A stretch of 33,072 nucleotides of DNA from Moorena bouillonii PNG (GTDB taxonomy: Bacteria > Cyanobacteriota > Cyanobacteriia > Cyanobacteriales > Coleofasciculaceae): the NCBI RefSeq assembly GCF_001942495.1, contig NZ_MKZS01000001.1, forward strand, positions 186,503 to 219,574, in the 5' to 3' direction. The stretch's first letter is position 1, and each line of letters begins with the position of its first letter. Shown in pieces: positions 1 through 33,072 of the stretch. Both the position numbers and the translations under genes were made by a program. The notes under the pieces are model-generated. The model had not been told where the DNA came from. It saw only the letters and a program-made list of their open reading frames with translations, and searched no databases.

Positions 1-1471
1 GTTCTGCCAGAGCCTACCAGGAACTGCCTGGAAATGATGCTCCTAGATTTTCCTGATCGCCCCCAGCTAGAGAATGCTGACCACGCCCAGACAATGGGTC
101 TATTTTTTGCATCAACAGTTCCTCAACTACCGATGGCAGTTCTTTTTGCCAAAGCTTCTCATAGGGAGTGAGCATATAAGCCTGAGGACCACCGACCAGC
201 TTGAGTTCACCAGTCTGAATGTTACGCACATAGATACCTTCATTCTTATCGAGGGGAATTGCTTGACGCTTCTCAACCACTTCCACTTCCACAGGGGGAA
301 TATAATCTTGTGGCCCAGCAATCATCCACAAATCCCCTGGTTGATGAGTAATGACCTGGTCACCTTCCCCCTCATTAAACGCTTCTTTGGATCGAAGCAA
401 TAGTGCTTCGAGCTCACTGAGAACATAGATGTTTTGGATACCATTCTCCAAGGACTCACCGGGATGCAAGAAAAATGATGTTCTCCCCTGGCGAACCTCT
501 CGCATACCCAGCTGAGGTTTACCAGACTCATCAATGGGGTCAACCACAATACACCATTCGTGATCGCTCAGGGTAGTAATCGTGACTTCTCCCACTACAT
601 CTTCATAAACATCGGGAATATGAATTTCTGCATCTTCAAAGGTGACCAACCATTCATCTCCAGCTTTACGCTGACGACCAAAAATATCAGTAAAGGTGCG
701 TTTAGCTTTCAGATGTAATGCTTTTTGTTCTGTCAAAATGTAAGCATTAATAATGCCAATTACTTCTTCATCCACACCAGGTAAATAGGCTCCTTCTTCT
801 CTAACCAGCCATTCTTCACCTGCTCTACGTCTATTCCTTTGACGATCGGTGCAATTCTGCCGTGCTAACAGGTGTAAGGCTTGGTTAGGTTTAATCACCT
901 CAGCTGTTACTGTCTCAACTACTTCCACCTCCACCCGGGGAATATAAGTTCCAGGTCCTTCAAACAGCCATTCATCACCTGCTAAACGGTTAATTGTTTC
1001 AGTCTGGGTTTCTCCATCAACTATTCTCGTAACCGTATCGGTAAAATCCCTAATTGCTCTCAGACGCAGTGCTTGATTGGTCTCGACTACTGCCAGTTGC
1101 GTGACATCCCCTACCAGTTTCTCGTTTGGATAAAGGGGAAACGGATCTTGCGCGAAGCGAATTTCCAGATCACCGTAGCGCAGTCGAATTTGACCATGTT
1201 GATCAGCAATGGGTTGACCGTCTTCATCCCGGAGTAACGGATTAGCAACCACACAATAATACCGAGGCGGCACAATAATCATCGGTTCAGGTTTTAAGAT
1301 CAGCCGCTCGTGATCCCGAAGAGTAATGGTTTGAGGACCAACCTCCAGTCGGGTAACACCGGTGTTGTTGTCTAGCACATGAATAAACTGTTGGGGCTTG
1401 ATGCGAATCACTTCACTAGTTGTCCTAGGCCCTTCCATTTTCTTATCTGTTTTACGCTCAGTTGTAGTCAT
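1..1471 (-). CDS. Major vault protein (MVP) homologue, N-terminal about 485 aa. The 3' end of the gene runs off the left window edge. It has tandem vault repeats.
   Basis: Translation shows repeated modules with the MVP signature, e.g. 'GDEWLFEGPGTYIPRVEVEVVE', 'GEEWLVREEGAYLPGVDEEV', 'GDEWLVTFEDAEIHIPDVYEDVVG' and 'PGDLWMIAGPQDYIPPVEVEVVEKRQAIPLDKNEGIYV'. The N-terminus 'IRIKPQQFIHVLDNNTGVTRLEVGPQTITL...PPRYYCVVANP' is near-collinear with metazoan MVP as I remember it. The ORF is open to position 1, with no stop. Confidence 0.85.
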
Positions 1472-7721: not shown

Positions 7722-10628
7722 TCAATTGCGCAGAATCAACCGTTGCCGATGAACATGCAACAAACGAAACTCCTGCTGCGCCACCTGGTCCAACATATAA
7801 ATAATATGCTCTGGTCGCAACATGGTGCCATCATTCAAACAACTCCCGACATACCGCAAAACCACCCCAGACTCCGCAACCTCCTCTTCACCATCTTTGG
7901 GTTTTTGGGGTTCCATCACCTCGAACTCAAATAAGCGATCGCATAAATTCACCCACTGCTTCTTACCCGACTTCGTAAACCGCTCCCACCAAATTTCCTT
8001 ACTACCCTTAATTGCTTCAATCCAACCCTGCCAGTCTTCCCAAGACACCGATGACATTACCTCAACTTGAATCAAATACTCAGCCTTTTCCAACAGCTGA
8101 GTTCCAGCAGGTTCCTTCAAATCCACTGCTTCAACCCCATACACCGGAATCTCTTCAGGCAACTCAGACACCAGCCTTTCCCTAAACTCTTCAACTGGCA
8201 TTTTCTGAGTTAACTCAAACTCCACAATCTCCCCACTACTAGACGCTCCCAAGGGCAATGCATTAGCAATCATAATCCGAGCATTAGCCCGAAACCCCCC
8301 ACTATAGCGAATTGGTAGTGACGCCCGTCTTACTGCTCTCTCAAACAGACTTGCCAAATCCAGATGACCCAACAAGGTCATATCCCCCAACTTTCCAAAC
8401 CAAACCCGCAGCCGCTGATCCTTATTAGTATTGGGTTTAAAGTGACCAGCAAATTGGGGAATCTGCGGCGGGTCAATCACCACATTATGACCAAAATCAA
8501 TCCCACACACACCACAGTGAGAACACCCATCAAAGGAACAATCCGGTACTGTTGCTGCATCTAACGCCCGTTGTAAATCTTCCTTGAGCCAATTCTTATC
8601 AATTCCCGTATCAATATGATCCCAAGGCAAGGGAGCATCAAGGGCATCAAGGGTTGAAGGTTGTTCGCGTAGCGTGGCCGAAAGGCCAAGGTTAGTTGGT
8701 TGTTCGCGTAGCGTGGCCGAAAGGCCAAGGTTAGACCGTTGAAGGTTAGACCGTTGAAGGTTAGACCGTTGAAGGTTAGACCGTTGTTCGCCTTTGGCGT
8801 TCCCGTAGGGTAGGTTATTTGGTTGTTCGCGTAGCGTGGCCGAAAGGCCAAGGTTATTTGGTTGTTCGCGTAGCGTGGCCGAAAGGCCAAGGTTAGCTGG
8901 TTGCTCTGAACTTTCAACCTTCAACCTTCCAACTTGCAACTCTTCTAGACCAGCCATCACGTTCCATTCGCCATTTTCTACTTGGCGATATTTCCAGGTC
9001 AGACCTGATGAAGCGATCGCATTTTCCCAAGCAGCAAATGCCCGATCCAAGCTTTCCATCCAGGAGTCCATCCCTGCCCCCAATTCCCAAGCACGGCGCA
9101 CCACCGCACTTAAGCGTCTGTCACCCCGTCCCACGAAATCTTCCATGGCCGAAATCCGAACATCGGTGTAATTAACCTTCACCCCCCTGATCTGAGCAAA
9201 TACTTGTTTGAGCAATTCCTGCTTGCGTTTAAACTCCGAAGTCGATACGGAATGCCACTGGAATGGGGTGTGAGGTTTTGGGGTAAAATTAGAAACAGTT
9301 ATGTTAAACTTAAGGGTTTTTCTGCCTTTGGCACGGCACTCCTGCTGCAACCAACGCACCGTTTCTGCGATCCCCAACACATCCACATCCGTTTCACCGG
9401 GCAAACCAATCATAAAATAGAGCTTGACTTTCTCCCAGCCTTGGTCAAATGCCGTCTTTACTCCCCTGAGCAGTTCTTCGTTAGTCAGTCCCTTATTAAT
9501 AATATCCCGCATCCGCTGAGTTCCTGCTTCTGGGGCAAAGGTCAAGCCACTCTGCCGATTTCCCCCTAGGATATTGGCAATATTTTCATCAAAGCGGTCT
9601 ACCCGCTGACTAGGTAGAGACAGGGAAATATTCTGATCCTTAAGACGATTTTTGATTTCCATCCCCACCGCTGGTAGAGCCAGATAATCCGAACAACTCA
9701 GGGATAAAAGGGAAAACTCGTTATACCCTGTAGCACGCATGCCTTGTTCAATAGCTTCCACCACTTTTTCCGGTTCCACATCCCGCGCTGGTCGAGTCAG
9801 CATCCCAGGTTGGCAGAAGCGACAACCCCGAGTACAGCCCCGTCGCACTTCGATCTTGAGTCGGTCATGAACCGTTTGGATATAGGGTACTAGTCCAATA
9901 GCATAGGCAGGCATCGGTGTAGCCACACGCCGCAAAATCCGCTTCGGCACATCAGGGCGGTTGGGTTTAACTGAGCCATCCTCAGTCATATCATAGAATT
10001 GGGGGACATACACCCCTGGTATCTGAGCCAAATCCAGGAGTAATGCTTCTCGACTTAAGCCAGCTGCTTTGCCTTCTTCGATTACTAAGCCAATCTCTGG
10101 CAACAATTCTTCCCCATCGCCAAGATCAACAAAATCTAAGAAATCTGCATAGGGTTCAGGATTCGATGTCGCCGTTTGTCCACCTGCAAAAATTAGGGGG
10201 ATTTCCGATATATCAAACTCAGCACGGTCTTTCCAGGTCAGGGGAATTTCTGCCAAATCCAACATTTCCAAGATGTTGGTTGCCCCTAATTCATAGCTAA
10301 GGCTAAAGCCAATAATATCAAAATCTTTCAGAGGTCGCCGATTCTCGACAGCAAACAGAGGGGTTTGAGTGGAACGCAATTTAGCTGCCAAGTCTGGGGC
10401 GGGTAGATAGGCGCGATCGCATAATTGCCTAGGTTGAGAATTCAATATATTGTAGAGGATGATATGGCCTAAGTTAGAAGCGCCCACTTCATAGACTTCT
10501 GGATAAGTCAATACCCAGCGTACCTCAGCTTTTTCCCAAGGTTTATGGACTGCTCCCAACTCGTTACCTAAGTAACGGGCAGGTCTGTTGATGTCTGGTG
10601 TTAATATTTCCTCTACAGTGATTGCCAT
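7722..10628 (-). CDS. Radical SAM protein fused to a DUF2344-like C-terminal domain (TIGR03960/TIGR03936-type fusion). It carries an in-frame insertion of about 95 aa derived from repetitive elements.
   Basis: N-terminus 'MAITVEEILTPDINRPARYLGNELGAVHK' and the CxxxCxxC cluster 'CTRGCRFCQPG' identify the family. The ORF is long and conserved-looking. The internal low-complexity segment 'NLGLSATLREQPN' x4 plus 'SNLQR' x4 is encoded by DNA repeats at 8640-8930. Confidence 0.85.
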   Translation of the reverse strand: MAITVEEILTPDINRPARYLGNELGAVHKPWEKAEVRWVLTYPEVYEVGASNLGHIILYNILNSQPRQLCDRAYLPAPDLAAKLRSTQTPLFAVENRRPLKDFDIIGFSLSYELGATNILEMLDLAEIPLTWKDRAEFDISEIPLIFAGGQTATSNPEPYADFLDFVDLGDGEELLPEIGLVIEEGKAAGLSREALLLDLAQIPGVYVPQFYDMTEDGSVKPNRPDVPKRILRRVATPMPAYAIGLVPYIQTVHDRLKIEVRRGCTRGCRFCQPGMLTRPARDVEPEKVVEAIEQGMRATGYNEFSLLSLSCSDYLALPAVGMEIKNRLKDQNISLSLPSQRVDRFDENIANILGGNRQSGLTFAPEAGTQRMRDIINKGLTNEELLRGVKTAFDQGWEKVKLYFMIGLPGETDVDVLGIAETVRWLQQECRAKGRKTLKFNITVSNFTPKPHTPFQWHSVSTSEFKRKQELLKQVFAQIRGVKVNYTDVRISAMEDFVGRGDRRLSAVVRRAWELGAGMDSWMESLDRAFAAWENAIASSGLTWKYRQVENGEWNVMAGLEELQVGRLKVESSEQPANLGLSATLREQPNNLGLSATLREQPNNLPYGNAKGEQRSNLQRSNLQRSNLQRSNLGLSATLREQPTNLGLSATLREQPSTLDALDAPLPWDHIDTGIDKNWLKEDLQRALDAATVPDCSFDGCSHCGVCGIDFGHNVVIDPPQIPQFAGHFKPNTNKDQRLRVWFGKLGDMTLLGHLDLASLFERAVRRASLPIRYSGGFRANARIMIANALPLGASSSGEIVEFELTQKMPVEEFRERLVSELPEEIPVYGVEAVDLKEPAGTQLLEKAEYLIQVEVMSSVSWEDWQGWIEAIKGSKEIWWERFTKSGKKQWVNLCDRLFEFEVMEPQKPKDGEEEVAESGVVLRYVGSCLNDGTMLRPEHIIYMLDQVAQQEFRLLHVHRQRLILRN
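8640..8930. repeat. Composite tandem-repeat element inside the rSAM CDS. It has 39-nt units (ttggttgttcgcgtagcgtggccgaaaggccaaggttag) x4 and 15-nt units (accgttgaaggttag) x4. All units are multiples of 3 nt.
   Basis: Direct reading of the sequence. The same unit families recur at 24085-24385 (intergenic), 18683-18712, 27897-27975 and 29583-29603. Confidence 0.85.
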
Positions 10629-26054: not shown

Positions 26055-26932
26055 AGGGCATGTCGTCAGTTAGAGAATTGACAACCAGTCAGTGCAGCTA
26101 TAGAACTGAGGGGAGTCAGGAAAACTCAACTAAGGAGGAAGTAATGCGTCGGTATGCCTTGCGTCTTGGATCAGTGGGAGCGAATTAAGGATATGCTACC
26201 TGGCCAGAAGGGCGCTTGTTGGTGGAAATGCCAAAGATAACCGCCTATTTGTTGAAGCCGTACTGTACCGATACCGTGCAGGTATTCCGTGGCGTGATTT
26301 GCCGGAGAGGTTTGGCGATTTTCGGTCTGTGCACAAGCGTCATAGCCTAGGGTCTGAAAGTGGTGTGATAGAACGTGTATTCAAGACACTCTCATTAGAT
26401 GCAGACAACGAGTACGCTGCGCTCGACGAACACAATTGTACGCGCTCATCAACGAGGGTGCTGGTGCAAAAAAAAACACCAGACGATAAACCATTAACAC
26501 AAGCAATTGGACGCAGTAAGGGTGGTTTATCTACCAAAATTCATGCCACCTGTGATGCACGCTGGTAATCCCACAGGGTTTCATCTGACCCCCGGTCAAG
26601 CACATGATTTGCAGGGAGCTGATGCGTTACGCGGGTGGTATACATGAGATTGGTGCACTGCTTGCAGACAAGGCTTACGATGCGTCAGAGCGGGTGCTCA
26701 AACGATTAAAAGAAGCTGACTGCCAAGCTGTCATTCCTCCTAAAGTCAATCGTACTCAACTTTGAACATATGACTTGCACATGTATAAGTGGCGTCATCT
26801 GATCGAAAACTTTTTTCAGAAACTTAAGCAATACAGGGCAATAGCAACTCGCGCTTGATAAAACTGCTCGTAATTTTTTGGGAGCCATTCATCTCGCCGC
26901 TTCTGTCATCTGGCTTAACTGACGACATGCCC
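26055..26932 (+). mobile_element. IS5-family insertion sequence (IS427/IS1031-like, 878 bp). It has 17-bp perfect terminal IRs (GGGCATGTCGTCAGTTA) flanked by a TA duplication. The transposase is interrupted.
   Basis: IRs at 26055-26071 and 26916-26932 with flanking TA at 26053-54 and 26933-34. The transposase fragments read 'ERIKDMLPGQKG', 'NAKDNRLFVEAVLYRYRAGIPWRDLPERFGDFRSVHKRHS', 'SKGGLSTKIHATCDA', 'GNPTGFHLTPGQAHDLQGADAL', 'LADKAYDASE' and 'YKWRHLIENFFQKLKQYRAIATR', all IS5-family hallmarks. They are spread over three frames with stops, so at least part of the disruption is decay rather than a programmed frameshift. Confidence 0.8.
26299..26925 (+). pseudogene. IS5-family DDE transposase, frameshifted and carrying stops
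   Basis: See the mobile element above. There are multiple in-frame stops, including 'GSVGAN*', 'CDARW*' and 'GWYT*'. Confidence 0.7.
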
Positions 26933-27295
26933 TAAGTTAAAGCGATTATTAGTACGGCGCACTTGGTAGTTTATTTCTATCAAGAGACGATTAAATTGAT
27001 CTTCATCCGGGTAAACACCTACATCTAGAACCTCAATGCGCGGTTCCCACTGGGTCAAGGCTCGGCGTACCTCCACTGTTAATTGTCCAGCTGTCCCAGC
27101 GCTGTTGCTGGCAAATACTAAATCATGAATACCGCAGCCAAAATCTGGCCGCATCAGCCGTTCTCCTGGAGAAGTACTCATAATCATCCAAATCGACTGG
27201 CGGACACTATCCTCATATTGCGCCATATCGATTTGTTTATTTTGGTCGAGTACTACGGGGAAACTCCATCCCACTCCGAGAAAATCAGTAGTCAT
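26915..27295 (-). CDS. Baseplate protein of the gp25/GPW family (TssE-like). The C-terminus has been altered by the IS5-family insertion.
   Basis: 'SIWMIMSTSPGERLMRPDFGCGIHDLVFASN' is the GPW_gp25 signature. The last 6 codons and the stop are encoded by the TA duplication plus the IS inverted repeat. Confidence 0.85.
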   Translation of the reverse strand: MTTDFLGVGWSFPVVLDQNKQIDMAQYEDSVRQSIWMIMSTSPGERLMRPDFGCGIHDLVFASNSAGTAGQLTVEVRRALTQWEPRIEVLDVGVYPDEDQFNRLLIEINYQVRRTNNRFNLGHVVS

Positions 27296-27310: not shown

Positions 27311-27736
27311 TCAACCCCCAATAAATACCTTCGTCGGCTTACCAGGCCCAGGGGTTACTGTGCCGTGGGGAGGGGGTAATTCACTACAGGTCTTAACTGG
27401 GTCACCAATGCGCGCCACTGGTTTACCCTCAATTTTCACAGAGGAACTACCCTTAGTAATTTCAGCTGTTTTGTTAGGTTCCTTGACAAACTTGATCGGT
27501 GAAGTTCCCGGTGGCGGTATTGGTGGGTGTGCCTGGGTTTTACCCTGGCTGCCCTTTAAAGCCACCAATTTACCACCAATTTTCACCTTTTTACTCAACT
27601 TTTGCTCGAATTTTCCTTGGAAAGGAATTGGCATTGGCGCTACAATTGGCGGCGCAGGAGCAGGTGGTTGACCCTGGACTTTGTGCGTACAAGATGTCAC
27701 AACTAAATCGCCTTTTCTGGCTGCCGGTTTACCCAT
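27311..27736 (-). CDS. PAAR-repeat spike-tip protein (141 aa) with a central proline-rich insert
   Basis: 'GKPAARKGDLVVTSCTHKV' and 'GKPVARIGDPVKTCSELPPPHG...VFIGG' are PAAR motifs. GGAG sits 11 nt upstream of the ATG. Confidence 0.8.
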   Translation of the reverse strand: MGKPAARKGDLVVTSCTHKVQGQPPAPAPPIVAPMPIPFQGKFEQKLSKKVKIGGKLVALKGSQGKTQAHPPIPPPGTSPIKFVKEPNKTAEITKGSSSVKIEGKPVARIGDPVKTCSELPPPHGTVTPGPGKPTKVFIGG

Positions 27737-27772: not shown

Positions 27773-27847
<75 letters not shown>

Positions 27848-27894: not shown

Positions 27895-27975
27895 ACAGGC
27901 TTTGGCCTTTGGCCACGCTGTGCGAACGACGCTGGGACCTAACCCATAAGCTGTTCGCGTAGCGTGTGCGTAGCA
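27895..27975. repeat. Hairpin copy of the GGCCACGCT(A/G)(C/T)GCGAAC dispersed element. An inverted pair ggccacgctgtgcgaac ... gttcgcgtagcgtgtgcg is present.
   Basis: Direct reading. It is related to the units at 8660-8890, 18683-18712 and 29583-29603. Confidence 0.7.
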
Positions 27976-27989
27976 CATTCGCTGATACC

Positions 27990-28117
27990 TGATTGCTGAT
28001 TGCTGATTGCTGATTGCTGATTGCTGATTGCTGATGGCTGATTGCTGATTGCTGATTGCTGATTGCTGGTTGCTGATTGCTGATTGCTGATTGCTGATTG
28101 CTGATTGCTGATTGCTT
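27990..28117. repeat. Heptamer array TGATTGC of about 18 copies
   Basis: Direct reading. It abuts the stop codon of the spike gene. Confidence 0.9.
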
Positions 28118-28955
28118 AATTAATTGATACCGTCTTACCGGTAATTTTAACGTTTTTACTAGCTTTAAAGTGCATCCCCTGCTTAGTTTCAATTTTGCTA
28201 CCATTAGCATTAACTTTCAATGACTTATCTGTCTTCATATCCAGGTTATTCTTGGCAGTAATTTTGATATCTTCCTCGGAAATAATTTCGATACCCTTAC
28301 CACCAAGCTTTAGCTTACCTTCCTTAGACTCAATGGTAATCGAATTATCCTTAGTATTAATAATAATGCTGTTTTTGCCAGTTTTATCAATTACTTCAAT
28401 TTTTTCCTTATCCTTAGTATCATCTAAGCAAATAGTGTGACCACTTTGGGCAATTACTTCAATTTTGCCTTTGTCCTTAGTATCATCTAAACGGATAGTA
28501 TGTTTCTTATGGGAAATGACTTCAACTTTTTCTTCATCCTTAGTATCATCTAAGCGAATAATATGACCACTACGGGACTTAATTGTACGCTTATTAATAG
28601 TCTTTTTTTTACTATCTTCCTTGTCTTTTTCAGGAGACTCAGGTGGTTTATCTTTGCCATTCCATAACCCTCCTAGGATATAGGGAAAATTAATATCACC
28701 TTGTTCAAAAGCTACCAGCACCTCATCATTCACCTCCGGCAAAAAATAAATACCACGGTCATTACCAGCCATGGGAGTTAACACCCTAGCCCAATAACTT
28801 TCATCATTATCTGAGAGCCAAGGAAACTTGACCTTGACTCGCCCTAAGTTTTCCTCATCGCCATTGTTAGTCACTATTCCCATAGTCACCCCATAGAAAC
28901 GACCTCGTATTTCAGGGGGACCTAGCAAATTACTTAGTAAATCGATGCTTGTCAT
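28116..28955 (-). CDS. Spike protein of the gpV/gp5 family (Phage_base_V OB-fold N-domain plus beta-helix repeats)
   Basis: 'YGVTMGIVTNNGDEENLGRVKVKFPWLSDNDESYWARVLTPMAGNDRGIYFLPEVNDEVLVAFEQGDINFPYILGGLWN' is the canonical gpV/VgrG-gp5 N-domain. The C-terminal repeats 'HTIRLDDTKDKGKIEVI' occur three times. Confidence 0.85.
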   Translation of the reverse strand: MTSIDLLSNLLGPPEIRGRFYGVTMGIVTNNGDEENLGRVKVKFPWLSDNDESYWARVLTPMAGNDRGIYFLPEVNDEVLVAFEQGDINFPYILGGLWNGKDKPPESPEKDKEDSKKKTINKRTIKSRSGHIIRLDDTKDEEKVEVISHKKHTIRLDDTKDKGKIEVIAQSGHTICLDDTKDKEKIEVIDKTGKNSIIINTKDNSITIESKEGKLKLGGKGIEIISEEDIKITAKNNLDMKTDKSLKVNANGSKIETKQGMHFKASKNVKITGKTVSIN

Positions 28956-28963
28956 GATGTCCC

Positions 28964-30020
28964 GGTGGTGATAAACATGTAGTGATACAACATTTACTTT
29001 AGCCTAAATAAGACATTTGTTAATCAAAAATATAGTCACTAATATAGTCACTTGACTATCATATTATTAGCAATACTTATATAATTTATTAAAAAATTTG
29101 ATTAAAAAACTCTTATGAAACTGCTATATTTTTATTAGTAAAAAATGCTTTTTCGATAAACAAGCCCTGGTAAACAATGAATGCAAAACCTGATTTAATA
29201 ACCCGACCTAATTGCCCTTACTGCAATTGTGAGCGAACAGTTAAAAATGGCAGCACTCATAATAAAAAGCAAAAATACCTCTGTAAAAACTGTAAGAAGC
29301 AGTTTCTAAAAAATCCGACAAAAAAGCCGATACCATTGTCGAAAAAAAAGATAATAGATGACCTCTTGCTTGAAAAACTATCTTTAGCTGGCATTGCACG
29401 AGTAGTTGGAGTTTCAAAAACATGGCTCCAAAATTATGTTAATAAAAAGTATGCCGAAACTCCCCGAAAAATCAAGGTTTCCGAAAAACCAAAAGGGAAA
29501 ATTACCATAGAATGTGATGAAATGTGGTCTTTTGTTAACCAGAAAGATAATCAGCAATGGATTTGGTTGGCAATTGATGGCCGTTGGCCACGCTACGCGA
29601 ACAAAAAACTAGAGAAATAATTGGAGTTTATATTGGTGATCGTACTCGATACTCGGCCAAAAAATTATGGCAGTCTTTCCCTCCAGTAGTTCGACAATGT
29701 GCTGTGTGTTATACAGATTTTTGGGAAGCTTATAAAACAGTAATACCTAAAAAGCGATGCAGCGCGGTCTTGGGGGTTTCCCCCATGAGCGACTGCATCA
29801 AGACAACGTCACAAGCCAGTAGCAAAAAAAACTGGTAAAACTAATCATATTGAAAGATTAAATAATACCTTAAGACAAAGGATTAGTCGTCTGGTAAGAA
29901 AAACTTTGTCATTTTCCAAAAAAGAACGAAAATCACTTAGGAGCTATTTGGAATTTTATTCATCACTATAATAAGTGTTTGTCAGGTTGATTAGGCCATC
30001 ACTACATGTTTATCACCACC
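28964..30020 (+). mobile_element. IS1-family insertion sequence (1057 bp). It has 23-bp perfect terminal IRs (GGTGGTGATAAACATGTAGTGAT) and an 8-bp target duplication GATGTCCC.
   Basis: IRL 28964-28986 and IRR 29998-30020 are exact reverse complements. Direct repeats GATGTCCC lie at 28956-28963 and 30021-30028. The internal ORFs read 'NCPYCNCERTVKNG...CKNCKKQF' (zinc finger), 'IECDEMWSFVNQKDNQQWIWLAIDG', 'REIIGVYIGDR...YTDFWEAYKTVIP' and '[30 protein letters not shown]', all IS1 InsA/InsB hallmarks. Confidence 0.9.
29177..29985 (+). pseudogene. IS1-family transposase (InsAB-like), broken into three frames by inserted small elements and a poly-A tract
   Basis: Frame changes occur at about 29600, where the element GGCCGTTGGCCACGCTACGCGAAC sits. 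They also occur at about 29760-29800, where the hairpin gatgcag...TTGGGGGTTTCCCCCATGAgcgactgcatc sits, and at the A8 run at about 29822. Confidence 0.75.
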
Positions 30021-31090
30021 GATGTCCCATTTCTCCTAACCTTGAATGCTGTGCGATACCCTCGTTTATGAGAATAACTATGGGTGCTGGAGGTGACATA
30101 GTAGTCACCACTAAACTGTTTGCCCACCCCTTGGATAGTAATAACAGTAGCTGCTCGCAAGTCAGGGCGTCCGACACACAAGCCCTCCCCACTGATGTAT
30201 TCTAGGGCCATGTTATTAAATCCTCCCTGAGCGATTTGCTCAGCTTCCTCTCTACTGAACACAGGGCGATACAAACGTTCGCTGGTTTTTTTTCCACTAC
30301 CCAAAGCCGGATCTACAGCCTTAGCACCGCTCTTGTTAGTACTAAAACCAGGACTGGCTCGCCCAATGAAGGCTTTCTTGTCCTTCGGGTTCCAACCGCG
30401 CACCTCCACCTGTCCCACCTGGGTCAAGCTGGTCAGTCGGGAAGAAAAACTGAGCAAATCCTTTCGTTGAACTAGGGTCAACACTGACTTGGATTTATCC
30501 TGATGGGGCCGGAAATATAGTGTTTTATCTTGAACCACTACCTCATAACCGAGTCGTTGAGCACGGGTCTGAAGAAATTCCATGTCTGTTTGGTTATGCT
30601 GTAGTACATAGTCCAAAACCAGCTTTGTCGTTACTCCCCCATACTTTAGACCGGCTTTTTTGGCAATATCTCTAGCAATATCGCTGTCTTTCTTTTTAGT
30701 AAACGAGCGAGTGTTGTAACCCCGAAGCAATCGATGACTGTAGTCGTAGCCGCGCACTGTCAACAGAGGTATTTCCCCATGGGCAAATTCTGGTTCCAGA
30801 CCGGTAATCTGACCCATCATCAGTTTTTGCAGTTTCCCTCCACTACCCCCGTAGCCCATAAAAATCGTTACCTCATTGCCTAGCTTAAACAGTTGCGGAT
30901 CAATCCACTCCTGCTTTTCTTGGTCCCAGTTGGCAAGCTTGATGGTAAACATAGTGGGAGTACTAACGTTTTCATCCACAATTACTGCCATCACATCAGA
31001 CCGCAACTGTTGTCCCCTGATCAGAATTCTGAAGCCAGGGACTGAGGTAGCGATGCTATTGGTACTAGTTTGAGGAGGTGTCGAGAGCAT
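30002..31090 (-). CDS. Baseplate hub protein of the phage late control gene D (gpD/gp27-like) family. The stop codon is now supplied by the IS1 inverted repeat.
   Basis: 'QHNQTDMEFLQTRAQRLGYEVVVQDKTLYF' and the C-terminus 'GDYYVTSSTHSYSHKRGYRTAFKV' match the Phage_GPD pattern. The last 5 codons, 'VVINM*', are encoded by IRR of the IS1 element. Confidence 0.8.
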   Translation of the reverse strand: MLSTPPQTSTNSIATSVPGFRILIRGQQLRSDVMAVIVDENVSTPTMFTIKLANWDQEKQEWIDPQLFKLGNEVTIFMGYGGSGGKLQKLMMGQITGLEPEFAHGEIPLLTVRGYDYSHRLLRGYNTRSFTKKKDSDIARDIAKKAGLKYGGVTTKLVLDYVLQHNQTDMEFLQTRAQRLGYEVVVQDKTLYFRPHQDKSKSVLTLVQRKDLLSFSSRLTSLTQVGQVEVRGWNPKDKKAFIGRASPGFSTNKSGAKAVDPALGSGKKTSERLYRPVFSREEAEQIAQGGFNNMALEYISGEGLCVGRPDLRAATVITIQGVGKQFSGDYYVTSSTHSYSHKRGYRTAFKVRRNGTSVVINM

Positions 31091-31098
31091 GGTTAATT

Positions 31099-31950
31099 TT
31101 AGGTTAGATTAAGTACCGGGATGGTCAGAACTTGACCTGGTGTAAGGTTACGGGGATTATTAATCCCATTAGCCTTGGCAATCTCTCGCCAGAAGCTGGG
31201 GTCATTATATTCTTGACCAGCGATGCTGCTCAGGGTTTCTCCACGTCGCACAACGTGAATTGGGTCGTCATCCCGTGCCAGAGAACTGGGCTTTTCCCGC
31301 TCCTCATCTTCTTCAGGGATGAACTGGTGGAAAGTACAGTTGAGAGCGGCCCTGACTGGCATCCCATTAGGGGTAAACATAGTAAAGCGCTGGGTTAGTT
31401 GTCCAAGATACCCCTTAAAAATCAGGTTAAATGCCCCCCACCAGAGTTCACATACAGGGGGACGTTTTAAATCAGAGTCAATCAGAGTCAACTCAAAAAT
31501 CTTATTCGTATACTCTCGAACATCTACAGCATTGGGTGCTGATAATCCATACACACCAGTTAACGATGACGCCGCTGTTGCCGCTCCCGATGCAACTCGT
31601 TTGAGGGGAGAACTGCCGCCCCCGGATATACTTTCAGGTAGTCCCTCGTAGGTGTCAAAAAACAGGTCGAGAGTCAGGGTTGCTGGATCCCCACCAATAA
31701 ATTTAGTATCACCGCGATCGCGGTTTTTGAGAGTTTCATGACGCCATTGGGTTGTCTTGGTAATTTGAATTTCATTAGGATTGAATAGAGGCATTGGTTT
31801 GTTTTCTGGAAAAACCATCTGCCATCTTTTTCCTGGCTGCTCCTTGAGGATGGTTAATTTATCTAACTCTGCCCCAAAGAGGCTACTTGTTAATCCTTTG
31901 GTTTGGTTTAGTGTTTTTTGGGCTAGATTCTTAAACCCTGTTAATGCCAT
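31099..31950 (-). CDS. LysM-domain protein (Cis7/Afp7-like, or a gpU-gpX-like fusion) of contractile injection systems
   Basis: C-terminus 'GETLSSIAGQEYNDPSFWREIAKANGINNPRNLTPGQVLTIPVL' is a LysM domain. The gene sits immediately upstream of gpD-like, 8 nt from it. Its ATG overlaps the stop of the upstream gene in an ATGGCATTAA arrangement. Confidence 0.65.
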   Translation of the reverse strand: MALTGFKNLAQKTLNQTKGLTSSLFGAELDKLTILKEQPGKRWQMVFPENKPMPLFNPNEIQITKTTQWRHETLKNRDRGDTKFIGGDPATLTLDLFFDTYEGLPESISGGGSSPLKRVASGAATAASSLTGVYGLSAPNAVDVREYTNKIFELTLIDSDLKRPPVCELWWGAFNLIFKGYLGQLTQRFTMFTPNGMPVRAALNCTFHQFIPEEDEEREKPSSLARDDDPIHVVRRGETLSSIAGQEYNDPSFWREIAKANGINNPRNLTPGQVLTIPVLNLT

Positions 31951-33072
31951 TGGCTTAATCCCCTCCGCTCACTTTCTATGGTCAGATGCTGCATCAGTTT
32001 ATGGTGTACTTTCTCTACTAGTTCATCCACATCAATGTCCTCCACAGACTGATTAGTTGTAGTAGCGCCTGTTGTATTTTCTGATGCTTTCTGAATCACG
32101 GTATTTGCCTGTAAGCTAGTAGTTGATACAGTTGATATACTAGTTGATACTGATGCACCGTTGACAGATGGCATTCTTTGGATAACTCCAGAGCCATGAT
32201 CACCAATAGATGGCGAACTACTAACTCCTAGTCCGTTGCCAGAAAATGACGTTCTATTGACCCCAGAGGCGGAAAAAATCAGGGGAGCAGATAATTGATA
32301 ACCATCTTTTCCGGAAATTTCTCTAACCACTGGTCGCTCCGGGGTGGGTTGAATCAATGGCTGCTTTCCTTCGGATGGGCTGTTGACTATCTCCTTGACC
32401 ACTGGTCGCTCCGGGGTGCGTTGAATCAGTGGCTGATTTCCCTGGGATGGGCTGTTGACAATCTCTTTGATCACCGGTCGCTCCGGGGTGGGTTGAATCA
32501 GTGGCTGATTTCCCTGGGATGGGCTCTTGACTATCTCCTTGTGAAGCGATCGCTTTGGGGAGCGTTGAATCACTGGCGACTGGGTCAGGTTTCCGGAACT
32601 GCCTAGCGATCGCTTAGACTCTGTTGGCAAAGTGGTATTGGTGTTTTTTAAATTGTTTTTTAAATTGTTTTTTAAATTGTCTGAACTGACCTCTCCCCCA
32701 ACTCCTGCTCTAGTAGGAAAGGAATGTTGAGTACCACCCGTTCCTTCAGGATTAGGAGGGTTAGGCAACTTTACCAACATCTTCTCAGAACTACTTCCAG
32801 AACTACTTGATGACTGGGAGTTAATTGCTTTGGCTTGGACAACTGGCCAGGATAAGTCAGAAGATAGTCTAGTTTTCCTAGAAGGTTCAAGACCAGAAAC
32901 TAGGGGTTTGCTCTCAGAATCTGCTCTGGGGGAAGTCCTCTTAGTGGAGTTTACAAATTTTGCCTGGACAATCAATGGTTTTGTCCCAGATTTGCCCCTT
33001 TCAGAGGGTATTGAATTTGGTAACTGCTCAGTGCAATAAAGATGCTCTATTGACAAGCTGAGAGGGAAAATT
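31941..33072 (-). CDS. Repeat-containing Ser/Pro-rich protein, 5'-partial, possibly a tape-measure-like length determinant of the CIS
   Basis: The ORF is open to the window edge. It has three 20-aa repeats 'KEIVNSPSQGNQPLIQPTPERPVI' and 'NLKNNLKNNLKN', the latter from 15-nt DNA repeats. The conserved-looking C-terminus 'DIDVDELVEKVHHKLMQHLTIESERRGL' is translationally coupled to the LysM gene. The functional call rests on position only. Confidence 0.35.
   Translation of the reverse strand, partial: IFPLSLSIEHLYCTEQLPNSIPSERGKSGTKPLIVQAKFVNSTKRTSPRADSESKPLVSGLEPSRKTRLSSDLSWPVVQAKAINSQSSSSSGSSSEKMLVKLPNPPNPEGTGGTQHSFPTRAGVGGEVSSDNLKNNLKNNLKNTNTTLPTESKRSLGSSGNLTQSPVIQRSPKRSLHKEIVKSPSQGNQPLIQPTPERPVIKEIVNSPSQGNQPLIQRTPERPVVKEIVNSPSEGKQPLIQPTPERPVVREISGKDGYQLSAPLIFSASGVNRTSFSGNGLGVSSSPSIGDHGSGVIQRMPSVNGASVSTSISTVSTTSLQANTVIQKASENTTGATTTNQSVEDIDVDELVEKVHHKLMQHLTIESERRGLSQWH

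Follow-up and report, generated by a model that had tools for sequence, protein, structure and literature searches.

Classical IS1 insertions in the gal and lac operons of Escherichia coli were accompanied by polarity, and target duplications in the IS1 family are typically 8–9 bp long. The E. coli element carries two open reading frames (ORFs), InsA and InsB', which are joined by frameshift (PMC8944449). Among cyanobacteria, an extracellular contractile injection system (eCIS) locus has been catalogued in Moorea producens PAL (PMC8213781). We describe here a place at which these two kinds of system meet, in a 33,072-nucleotide stretch of the genome of Moorena bouillonii PNG (contig NZ_MKZS01000001.1; hereafter the window). 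A single insertion sequence (IS) of the IS1 family has transposed into the junction between the hub and spike genes of a split VgrG-like pair, and the staggered cut duplicated the octamer that reads GGGACATC on the operon strand. Taken as a whole, our reading is that an IS1-family element was inserted at a former ATGA stop/start overlap, that the coupling of hub and spike would thereby have been lost and that the locus is probably eroding; we hold this with high, if not complete, confidence.

An earlier note on this DNA had proposed an IS1-family element with exact 23-bp ends and a duplicated 8-bp target, and both marks were borne out. The left and right inverted repeats (IRL and IRR) are 100% complementary over their 23 bp, a length within the range of about 20–30 bp expected of IS1-family ends. 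When the window was scanned for the 23-mer with up to three mismatches, only these two copies were returned, with 0.00 expected from shuffled sequence. Immediately beyond each end stands the octamer GATGTCCC, which is found at no other place in the window, whichever strand is read. The boundary is ambiguous to a small extent, since C28963 and G30021 also pair, making 24-bp repeats with a 6-bp duplication formally possible; the two readings lead to the same restored sequence. The inverted repeats of E. coli IS1 begin GGTG (GGTGATG...), which the ends of the present element appear to resemble.

Deletion in silico of the element and one octamer gives ...GGGACATCATGACAAGC, or ...AGG AGA AAT GGG ACA TCA TGA CAA GC on the minus strand, in which the hub ends RNGTS-stop and overlaps the spike start, ATG-ACA-AGC, by 4 nt (ATGA). 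This exercise confirmed the length of 1,057 bp and the stop/start overlap that the earlier note had put forward. The restored arrangement also occurs naturally, and the comparison with related strains that had been proposed as a check could be made directly. Moorena contig L035 is uninterrupted at the junction and matches the restored window sequence with 100% identity over 81 nt, and the Moorena metagenome-assembled genome (MAG) L003 likewise has no insert and shows the ATGA overlap. A four-base overlap of hub and spike is also present in outgroups, as ATGA in Waterburya, Nodosilinea and a Competibacteraceae MAG and as GTGA in a SAR324 MAG. The element therefore abuts the former overlap, as had been claimed, and these comparisons point to the ATGA overlap as the state before insertion. 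A GGAG motif is found 9–12 nt upstream of the spike start in all relatives with the overlap; its conservation need not reflect ribosome binding, because the same bases encode a conserved Arg-Arg pair.

The effects on the reading frames are as the earlier note had described them. The hub retains all of its native residues and now reads into the inverted repeat, ending ...RRNGTSVVINM before a stop codon. Its last native serine codon has changed synonymously from TCA to TCG, because the third base is now supplied by the IS, and the VVINM tail would arise in either orientation of the element since both inverted repeats are identical. On the other side the spike ATG is preceded by the IS end, with only 8 native bases left upstream of it; 1,065 nt now separate this start codon from the GGAG motif and from the codon at which the native hub stopped. 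The transposase frames run on the plus strand and the operon genes on the minus strand, so that a transcript of the operon has to run through 1,057 nt in which it is antisense to the transposase gene. We expect the insertion to abolish termination-reinitiation coupling between hub and spike. With that coupling lost, the output of spike relative to hub probably falls, and polar or antisense effects on the downstream genes are plausible. The coordinates of these and the neighbouring features are collected in Table 1.

Table 1. Features at and around the interrupted hub-spike junction (positions in the window; operon genes lie on the minus strand)
Feature	Position	Strand	Remarks
IS1-family insertion sequence, defective	28964..30020	+	1,057 bp; 981 bp without the three lesions
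IRL GGTGGTGATAAACATGTAGTGAT	28964..28986	+	Spike-proximal end; 23 bp
IRR	29998..30020	-	Hub-proximal end; exact reverse complement of IRL; supplies the new tail codons and stop of the hub
Target-site duplication GATGTCCC, spike side	28956..28963		Reads GGGACATC on the operon strand; directly 5' of the spike ATG
Target-site duplication GATGTCCC, hub side	30021..30028		Spans hub codons G-T and the first 2 bases of the final Ser codon
IS1-family transposase pseudogene	29177..29990	+	Single 245-aa ORF after removal of the three lesions
Lesion 1, 23-nt insert GGCCGTTGGCCACGCTACGCGAA, dispersed hairpin repeat	29579..29601	+	Frameshift after WLAID
Lesion 2, 52-nt palindromic insert, core TTGGGGGTTTCCCCCATGA	29754..29805	+	Frameshift after IPKKR
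Lesion 3, 1-nt insertion within GAACG	29924..29928	+	Relatives have TTA-G; third frameshift
Junction ORF of 13 codons, MLYHYMFITTGTS then stop	28952..28993	-	Formed from IRL and the duplicated octamer; terminates on the native TGA, which shares bases with the spike ATG
Hub, gpD-like, N-terminal half of split VgrG (assigned from profile matches)	30002..31090	-	357 native residues + VVINM; PF05954, 35.7 bits (cut-off 30.1)
Spike, gp5/VgrG OB-fold and beta-helix, C-terminal half of split VgrG (assigned from profile matches)	28116..28955	-	Intact, 279 aa; PF04717, 106 bits, 1.2e-30
PAAR	27311..27736	-	Intact, 141 aa; PF05488
gp25-like baseplate gene	26915..27295	-	PF04965
CIS_tube + LysM, upstream of hub	31099..31950	-	PF19266 + PF01476
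Second IS, IS5 family, heavily degraded	26056..26932	+	Perfect inverted repeats of 17–19 bp; TA on both flanks

The family of the element was judged from a repaired transposase. The scores and homologue searches used a 244-aa repair that was made before the lesions had been mapped exactly and is near-identical to the final one. This protein scores 189.7 bits against NF033558 (IS1 family transposase; cut-off 100), matching profile positions 1–199 of 199, and 79.9 bits against Pfam PF03400 (DDE_Tnp_IS1; cut-off 24.1, 2.7e-22), which upholds the family assignment of the earlier note. The longest fragment as encoded (147 aa) is below the IS1-family threshold, at 19.4 bits. A zinc domain (NF050000, IS1/IS1595) is recognized at residues 13–44 of the repaired protein with 42 bits (cut-off 28); Pfam Zn_ribbon_InsA is weak (16.3, cut-off 26.1). 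The cysteines C13, C16, C36 and C39 are invariant in an alignment of 13 transposases, and the repaired protein keeps every invariant residue of that alignment.

Searches returned 4,193 homologues, mostly cyanobacterial, about 240 aa in length and single-ORF. The nearest intact protein (P0001, 245 aa, from metagenome contig L032) is 89% identical to the repaired transposase; a protein named 'IS1 family transposase ISLysp1' at NCBI (P0036) is 64% identical, and the best full-length-type matches in a plasmid collection, annotated as IS1 family, are about 65% identical. The inverted repeats of L032 and of a further relative, L033, are near-identical to the ends of the window element. In L033 a 952-bp element has inverted repeats that match with 1–2 mismatches and is flanked by a 9-bp duplication, ACCGCCATA. 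Copies closer to our element were also sought. A protein search for copies sharing the 23-nt insert found no transposase closer than 87% to the 147-aa fragment, and exact-sequence look-ups of that fragment and of the spike, tube-LysM and DUF6464 proteins gave no match on record. The 23-bp inverted repeat had no hits in an exact scan of metagenome contigs and was matched among 43 fetched loci by the distant relative L033 only, and the inverted-repeat scan found no second IS1 copy in the window. Since no closer relative is on record, we classify the element as an undescribed, defective member of the single-ORF branch of the IS1 family. As judged from the family models, the contrast between this layout and InsA/InsB' is a subgroup difference rather than grounds for exclusion from the IS1 family, because the NCBIfam equivalog model and the source annotations call the fused proteins IS1 family.

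The earlier note had called the transposase broken, and DNA alignment shows how: three extra pieces, inserts of 23 and 52 nt derived from small repeats and a single inserted nucleotide, are absent from the intact elements of L032 and L033. Programmed frameshifting was considered and rejected, as the three frame changes fall on sequence that the intact relatives lack. The element is by this evidence incapable of moving by its own transposase; mobilization in trans is possible, because its ends are intact.

The two larger inserts have copies elsewhere. Related copies of the 23-nt repeat lie in the window at 8663-8880 (four) and 27904-27966 and in other Moorena contigs (L034 9851-9873; L037 114-136), and a 52-nt sequence 98% identical to the second insert is present in another Moorena strain (L034 4190-4241). 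The predicted hairpin energies are -8.3 kcal/mol for the 23-nt insert and -28.3 kcal/mol for the 52-nt insert. Both repeats behave like mobile mini-elements nested inside the IS, and they look like the very small mobile repeats of cyanobacteria. Small dispersed repeats (SDRs) of cyanobacteria, reportedly treated by Elhai et al. in Genome Res in 2008, have a size range of 21–27 nt, into which the 23-nt insert fits. Both inserts are like the cyanobacterial SDRs and repetitive extragenic palindromes (REPs) in being short, hairpin-forming, present in multiple copies and present or absent between homologous elements. The 23-nt insert also shares with the GTAG-tagged REPs a short GGCC...GGCC hairpin beside a GTAG motif, on the complementary strand. 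The 52-nt element differs in being larger and more like a miniature inverted-repeat transposable element. These likenesses were judged by size, hairpin and dispersal; cyanobacterial GTAG families of REPs have been listed (PMC3733652).

The group of four window copies, of the GTTCGCGTAGCGTGGCCGAAAGGCCAAGG type, lies with short tandem units at 8663-8890, inside a 968-aa radical-SAM/DUF2344 ORF (7722-10628, minus strand). Since they sit between the two Pfam domains and leave the ORF uninterrupted, these repeats seem to have been taken up in frame as part of a linker. An intergenic palindrome at 18790-18870 with TTGGGGTTTCCCCCATGA has a 16-nt core, GGGGTTTCCCCCATGA, in common with the 52-nt insert, which suggests that these hairpins belong to a larger family.

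Hub and spike match adjacent parts of a single VgrG-related profile (NF033848, 547 positions), the hub covering positions 17-348 and the spike 370-523, and neither reaches the full-length cut-off of 275, which is no surprise for half-proteins. Because the matches are adjacent we assign the two proteins as halves of a split VgrG-like protein; in Chloroflexi relatives they are fused as one ORF. Over residues 1-357 the hub shares 97% identity with its counterpart in Moorena producens 3L; the spike protein matches M. bouillonii WP_075895768.1 at every residue, and four Moorena assemblies encode an identical PAAR protein. None of these three genes carries a disabling mutation or a stop, the ratio of nonsynonymous to synonymous substitution (dN/dS) against other strains is 0.05-0.36, and the flanking genes look selectively maintained, in keeping with purifying selection. 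The neighbours in the window are CIS_tube-LysM, PAAR and gp25, and in relatives sheath and gp19-type tube genes lie upstream.

The region between spike and PAAR contains two heptamer arrays, TCAGCGG in 10.7 copies (27773-27847) and GCTGATT in 19.4 copies (27981-28116). The second reaches the spike stop codon, and the stretch that separates the arrays holds copies of the small hairpin repeat. Upstream of the tube-LysM gene, an ORF at 31941-33056 (minus strand) has no Pfam hit and contains a tandem repeat (32326-32577) of 3.5 copies of a 72-nt unit, encoding 24 aa (...PSQGNQPLIQPTPERPVIKEIVNS...). Its length varies by strain, from 371 or more aa here to 427-529 aa in relatives. At the far end of the window a 485-aa ORF (14-1471, minus strand) gives strong matches to repeat domains of the Major Vault Protein (PF01505, 1.9e-68; Vault_2; Vault_4), a family unusual in a bacterium. 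A search of Rfam gave no hits across the whole window.

A larger and more damaging lesion, which lay outside the claims of the earlier note, is found at gp25. The encoded protein is identical to that of L035 for 121 residues, after which GHVVS and a stop, read from the inverted repeat of the IS5-family element, replace the native VYPFYLDY and stop. The protein of this second element had to be stitched together from five frame segments and then scores 222.4 bits against NF033580 (cut-off 110). Synteny with every relative ends at position 26932, inside gp25. In L001, L002, L004, L034-L037 and the outgroups L008, L014 and L015 a 1219-aa protein follows gp25, of which the short contigs L035-L037 show only the first 30-95 residues. 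No trace of this protein was found in the 26.9 kb downstream of gp25 in the window, where DUF6464, formyltransferase, OmpA-like, RNase II and other housekeeping genes lie instead. We considered a simple insertion of the second IS and rejected it, since neither the other flank nor any other part of the window contains the sequence with which gp25 would natively continue; the break is better described, on the same grounds, as a rearrangement or deletion junction. Taken together, the two elements suggest that mobile DNA is wearing down this injection-system locus and not regulating it.

We surveyed the junction in twelve other Moorena/Symploca loci. In nine of the twelve, among them the complete genomes of PAL and JHB, a repeat-rich spacer sets hub and spike apart; it measures 107-403 nt in eight of these loci, the ninth being partial and unmeasured. 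In a tenth, L034, an IS5-like element is nested inside the spacer. The spacer begins after ...TCATGA and ends ...CAATTATGAC, so that it is bracketed by ATGA, which looks like the duplication of the overlap by an insertion long ago. It is partly palindromic and contains heptamer arrays such as GGGAGAT and CCCGATT (L001 7075-7398; L004; L038-L043; L034 7345-8870). Nucleotide identity along the cluster is a mosaic: the PAAR-gp25 segment shares 99.7% identity with L035 and 93% with L034, and the hub is 98.7% identical to L034. The state of the junction does not track spike similarity either, and these two observations suggest recombination among Moorena strains within the cluster.

Several points weigh against a strong effect of the insertion. 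A gap of 107-1,526 nt separates hub and spike in ten of the twelve other loci (one of them partial and unmeasured), with both ORFs intact, so that, as far as these loci indicate, the genus evidently tolerates having the two genes apart. In the spacer-state loci examined, the ~13-30 nt that were read directly before the spike ATG contain no GGAG. Cyanobacteria lack Rho (PMC7665894), and for that reason classical Rho-dependent IS polarity should not apply. Terminator-like sites in and around the IS number 3, against 2.3±1.5 in shuffled sequence, and promoter-like sites 12, against 7.1±2.5; within the IS, the operon strand shows a single weak terminator-like site in a consensus scan, and none that is convincing, and a few weak promoter-like sites were also picked up. 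As these counts are not clearly above the shuffled background, we claim neither an outward promoter nor an internal terminator. The insertion itself has created at the junction the 13-codon ORF ending at the native TGA. Against the reading of an eroding locus, the absent genes of the cluster may have moved to another place in the genome, for instance through an inversion mediated by IS copies, where they could still be expressed.

These points can be assembled into an account in which the IS1 insertion is real but nearly neutral. Transcription would read through the element, the spike would be translated independently or after the junction ORF, and the hub-spike boundary would simply be a position where mobile DNA is tolerated. 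The spacers of other strains, one of which hosts the IS5-like element, agree with it, as do the freedom of hub, spike and PAAR from disabling mutations, the absence of Rho and the want of a strong intrinsic terminator. The intact ORFs may, however, merely reflect a recent insertion, the junction ORF is without an obvious ribosome-binding site, and downstream expression may yet suffer from the crossing of 1 kb of antisense untranslated RNA and from convergent transcription that starts at the transposase promoter. We regard near-neutrality as possible but on balance doubtful. A locus that was already dead when the IS1-family element arrived, or that died independently, the IS5-associated break in gp25 having taken away the remaining baseplate genes, would make the insertion one symptom of pseudogenization, with no functional effect of its own. 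The end of synteny inside gp25, the loss from view of the 1219-aa gene and the presence of two IS elements within 4 kb all speak for this, and we rate it only a little short of an even chance. Against it, the remaining genes still look selectively maintained, and the missing genes have perhaps been relocated rather than lost, our view being of 33 kb of the genome. The IS elements and short repeats of Moorena often confuse assemblies, and several MAG contigs end at this very junction, which could point to a collapsed or misjoined repeat. A misjoin would not produce an exact 8-bp duplication and perfect inverted repeats, nor would its excision recreate a natural empty site at 100% identity, and we consider an assembly artefact so improbable as to deserve next to no weight. 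We thus retain the reading of an IS1 insertion at the ATGA overlap, with coupling probably lost and the locus apparently eroding.

We also considered whether the split-VgrG boundary in Moorena is a recurrent safe landing site for mobile DNA at which spike translation persists, an idea that we think unlikely. The ATGA-flanked repeat-rich spacer, the IS5-like element nested in it and the present IS1-family element would be independent arrivals, and insertions would persist because the duplicated target rebuilds a stop/start overlap, here by way of the 13-codon ORF at the native TGA. If this were true, decoupling of hub and spike would be tolerated, and strains might even exploit it to set different spike dosages. 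In any case the strain panel, with its three junction states (overlap, spacer and IS), offers a natural test of whether 1:1 coupling of hub and spike matters in particle assembly. For annotation, the VVINM tail of the hub, the GHVVS tail of gp25 and the three fragmentary transposase ORFs should be treated as artefacts of insertion and not as native features. An injection-system cluster that has been interrupted twice by IS elements should not be assumed to be functional in toxin mining or in comparisons among Moorena strains.

The event is, in our view, ordinary IS-driven erosion in an IS- and repeat-rich cyanobacterial genome. What is newly seen is a dead member of the IS1 family; beyond that the biology is that of a routine IS. 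Compared with the spike complexes VgrG, Afp8 and Pvc8 and with gpD/gpV of phage P2, the locus has the same two components, a Phage_GPD hub and a Phage_base_V OB-fold spike, and its neighbours are the CIS_tube-LysM, PAAR and gp25 genes. Unlike these complexes, it encodes the protein in two genes that met at an ATGA overlap and have been pushed apart by an IS, and the cluster in the window ends at gp25.

With the classical E. coli IS1 our element has in common an IS1-type DDE transposase with an N-terminal zinc-binding domain, a target duplication of 8-9 bp and a size of ~0.8-1 kb. In contrast to it, the cyanobacterial lineage has one continuous ORF of ~240-245 aa and does not produce InsAB' by a programmed -1 frameshift, the copy in the window is dead and its host is without Rho. 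The single-ORF IS1 elements of cyanobacteria (L032/P0001 and P0036) have the same architecture and length, and lack the 23-nt, 52-nt and 1-nt inserts. The nested repeats, the junction ORF and the polymorphic junction all lie within known mobile-element biology.

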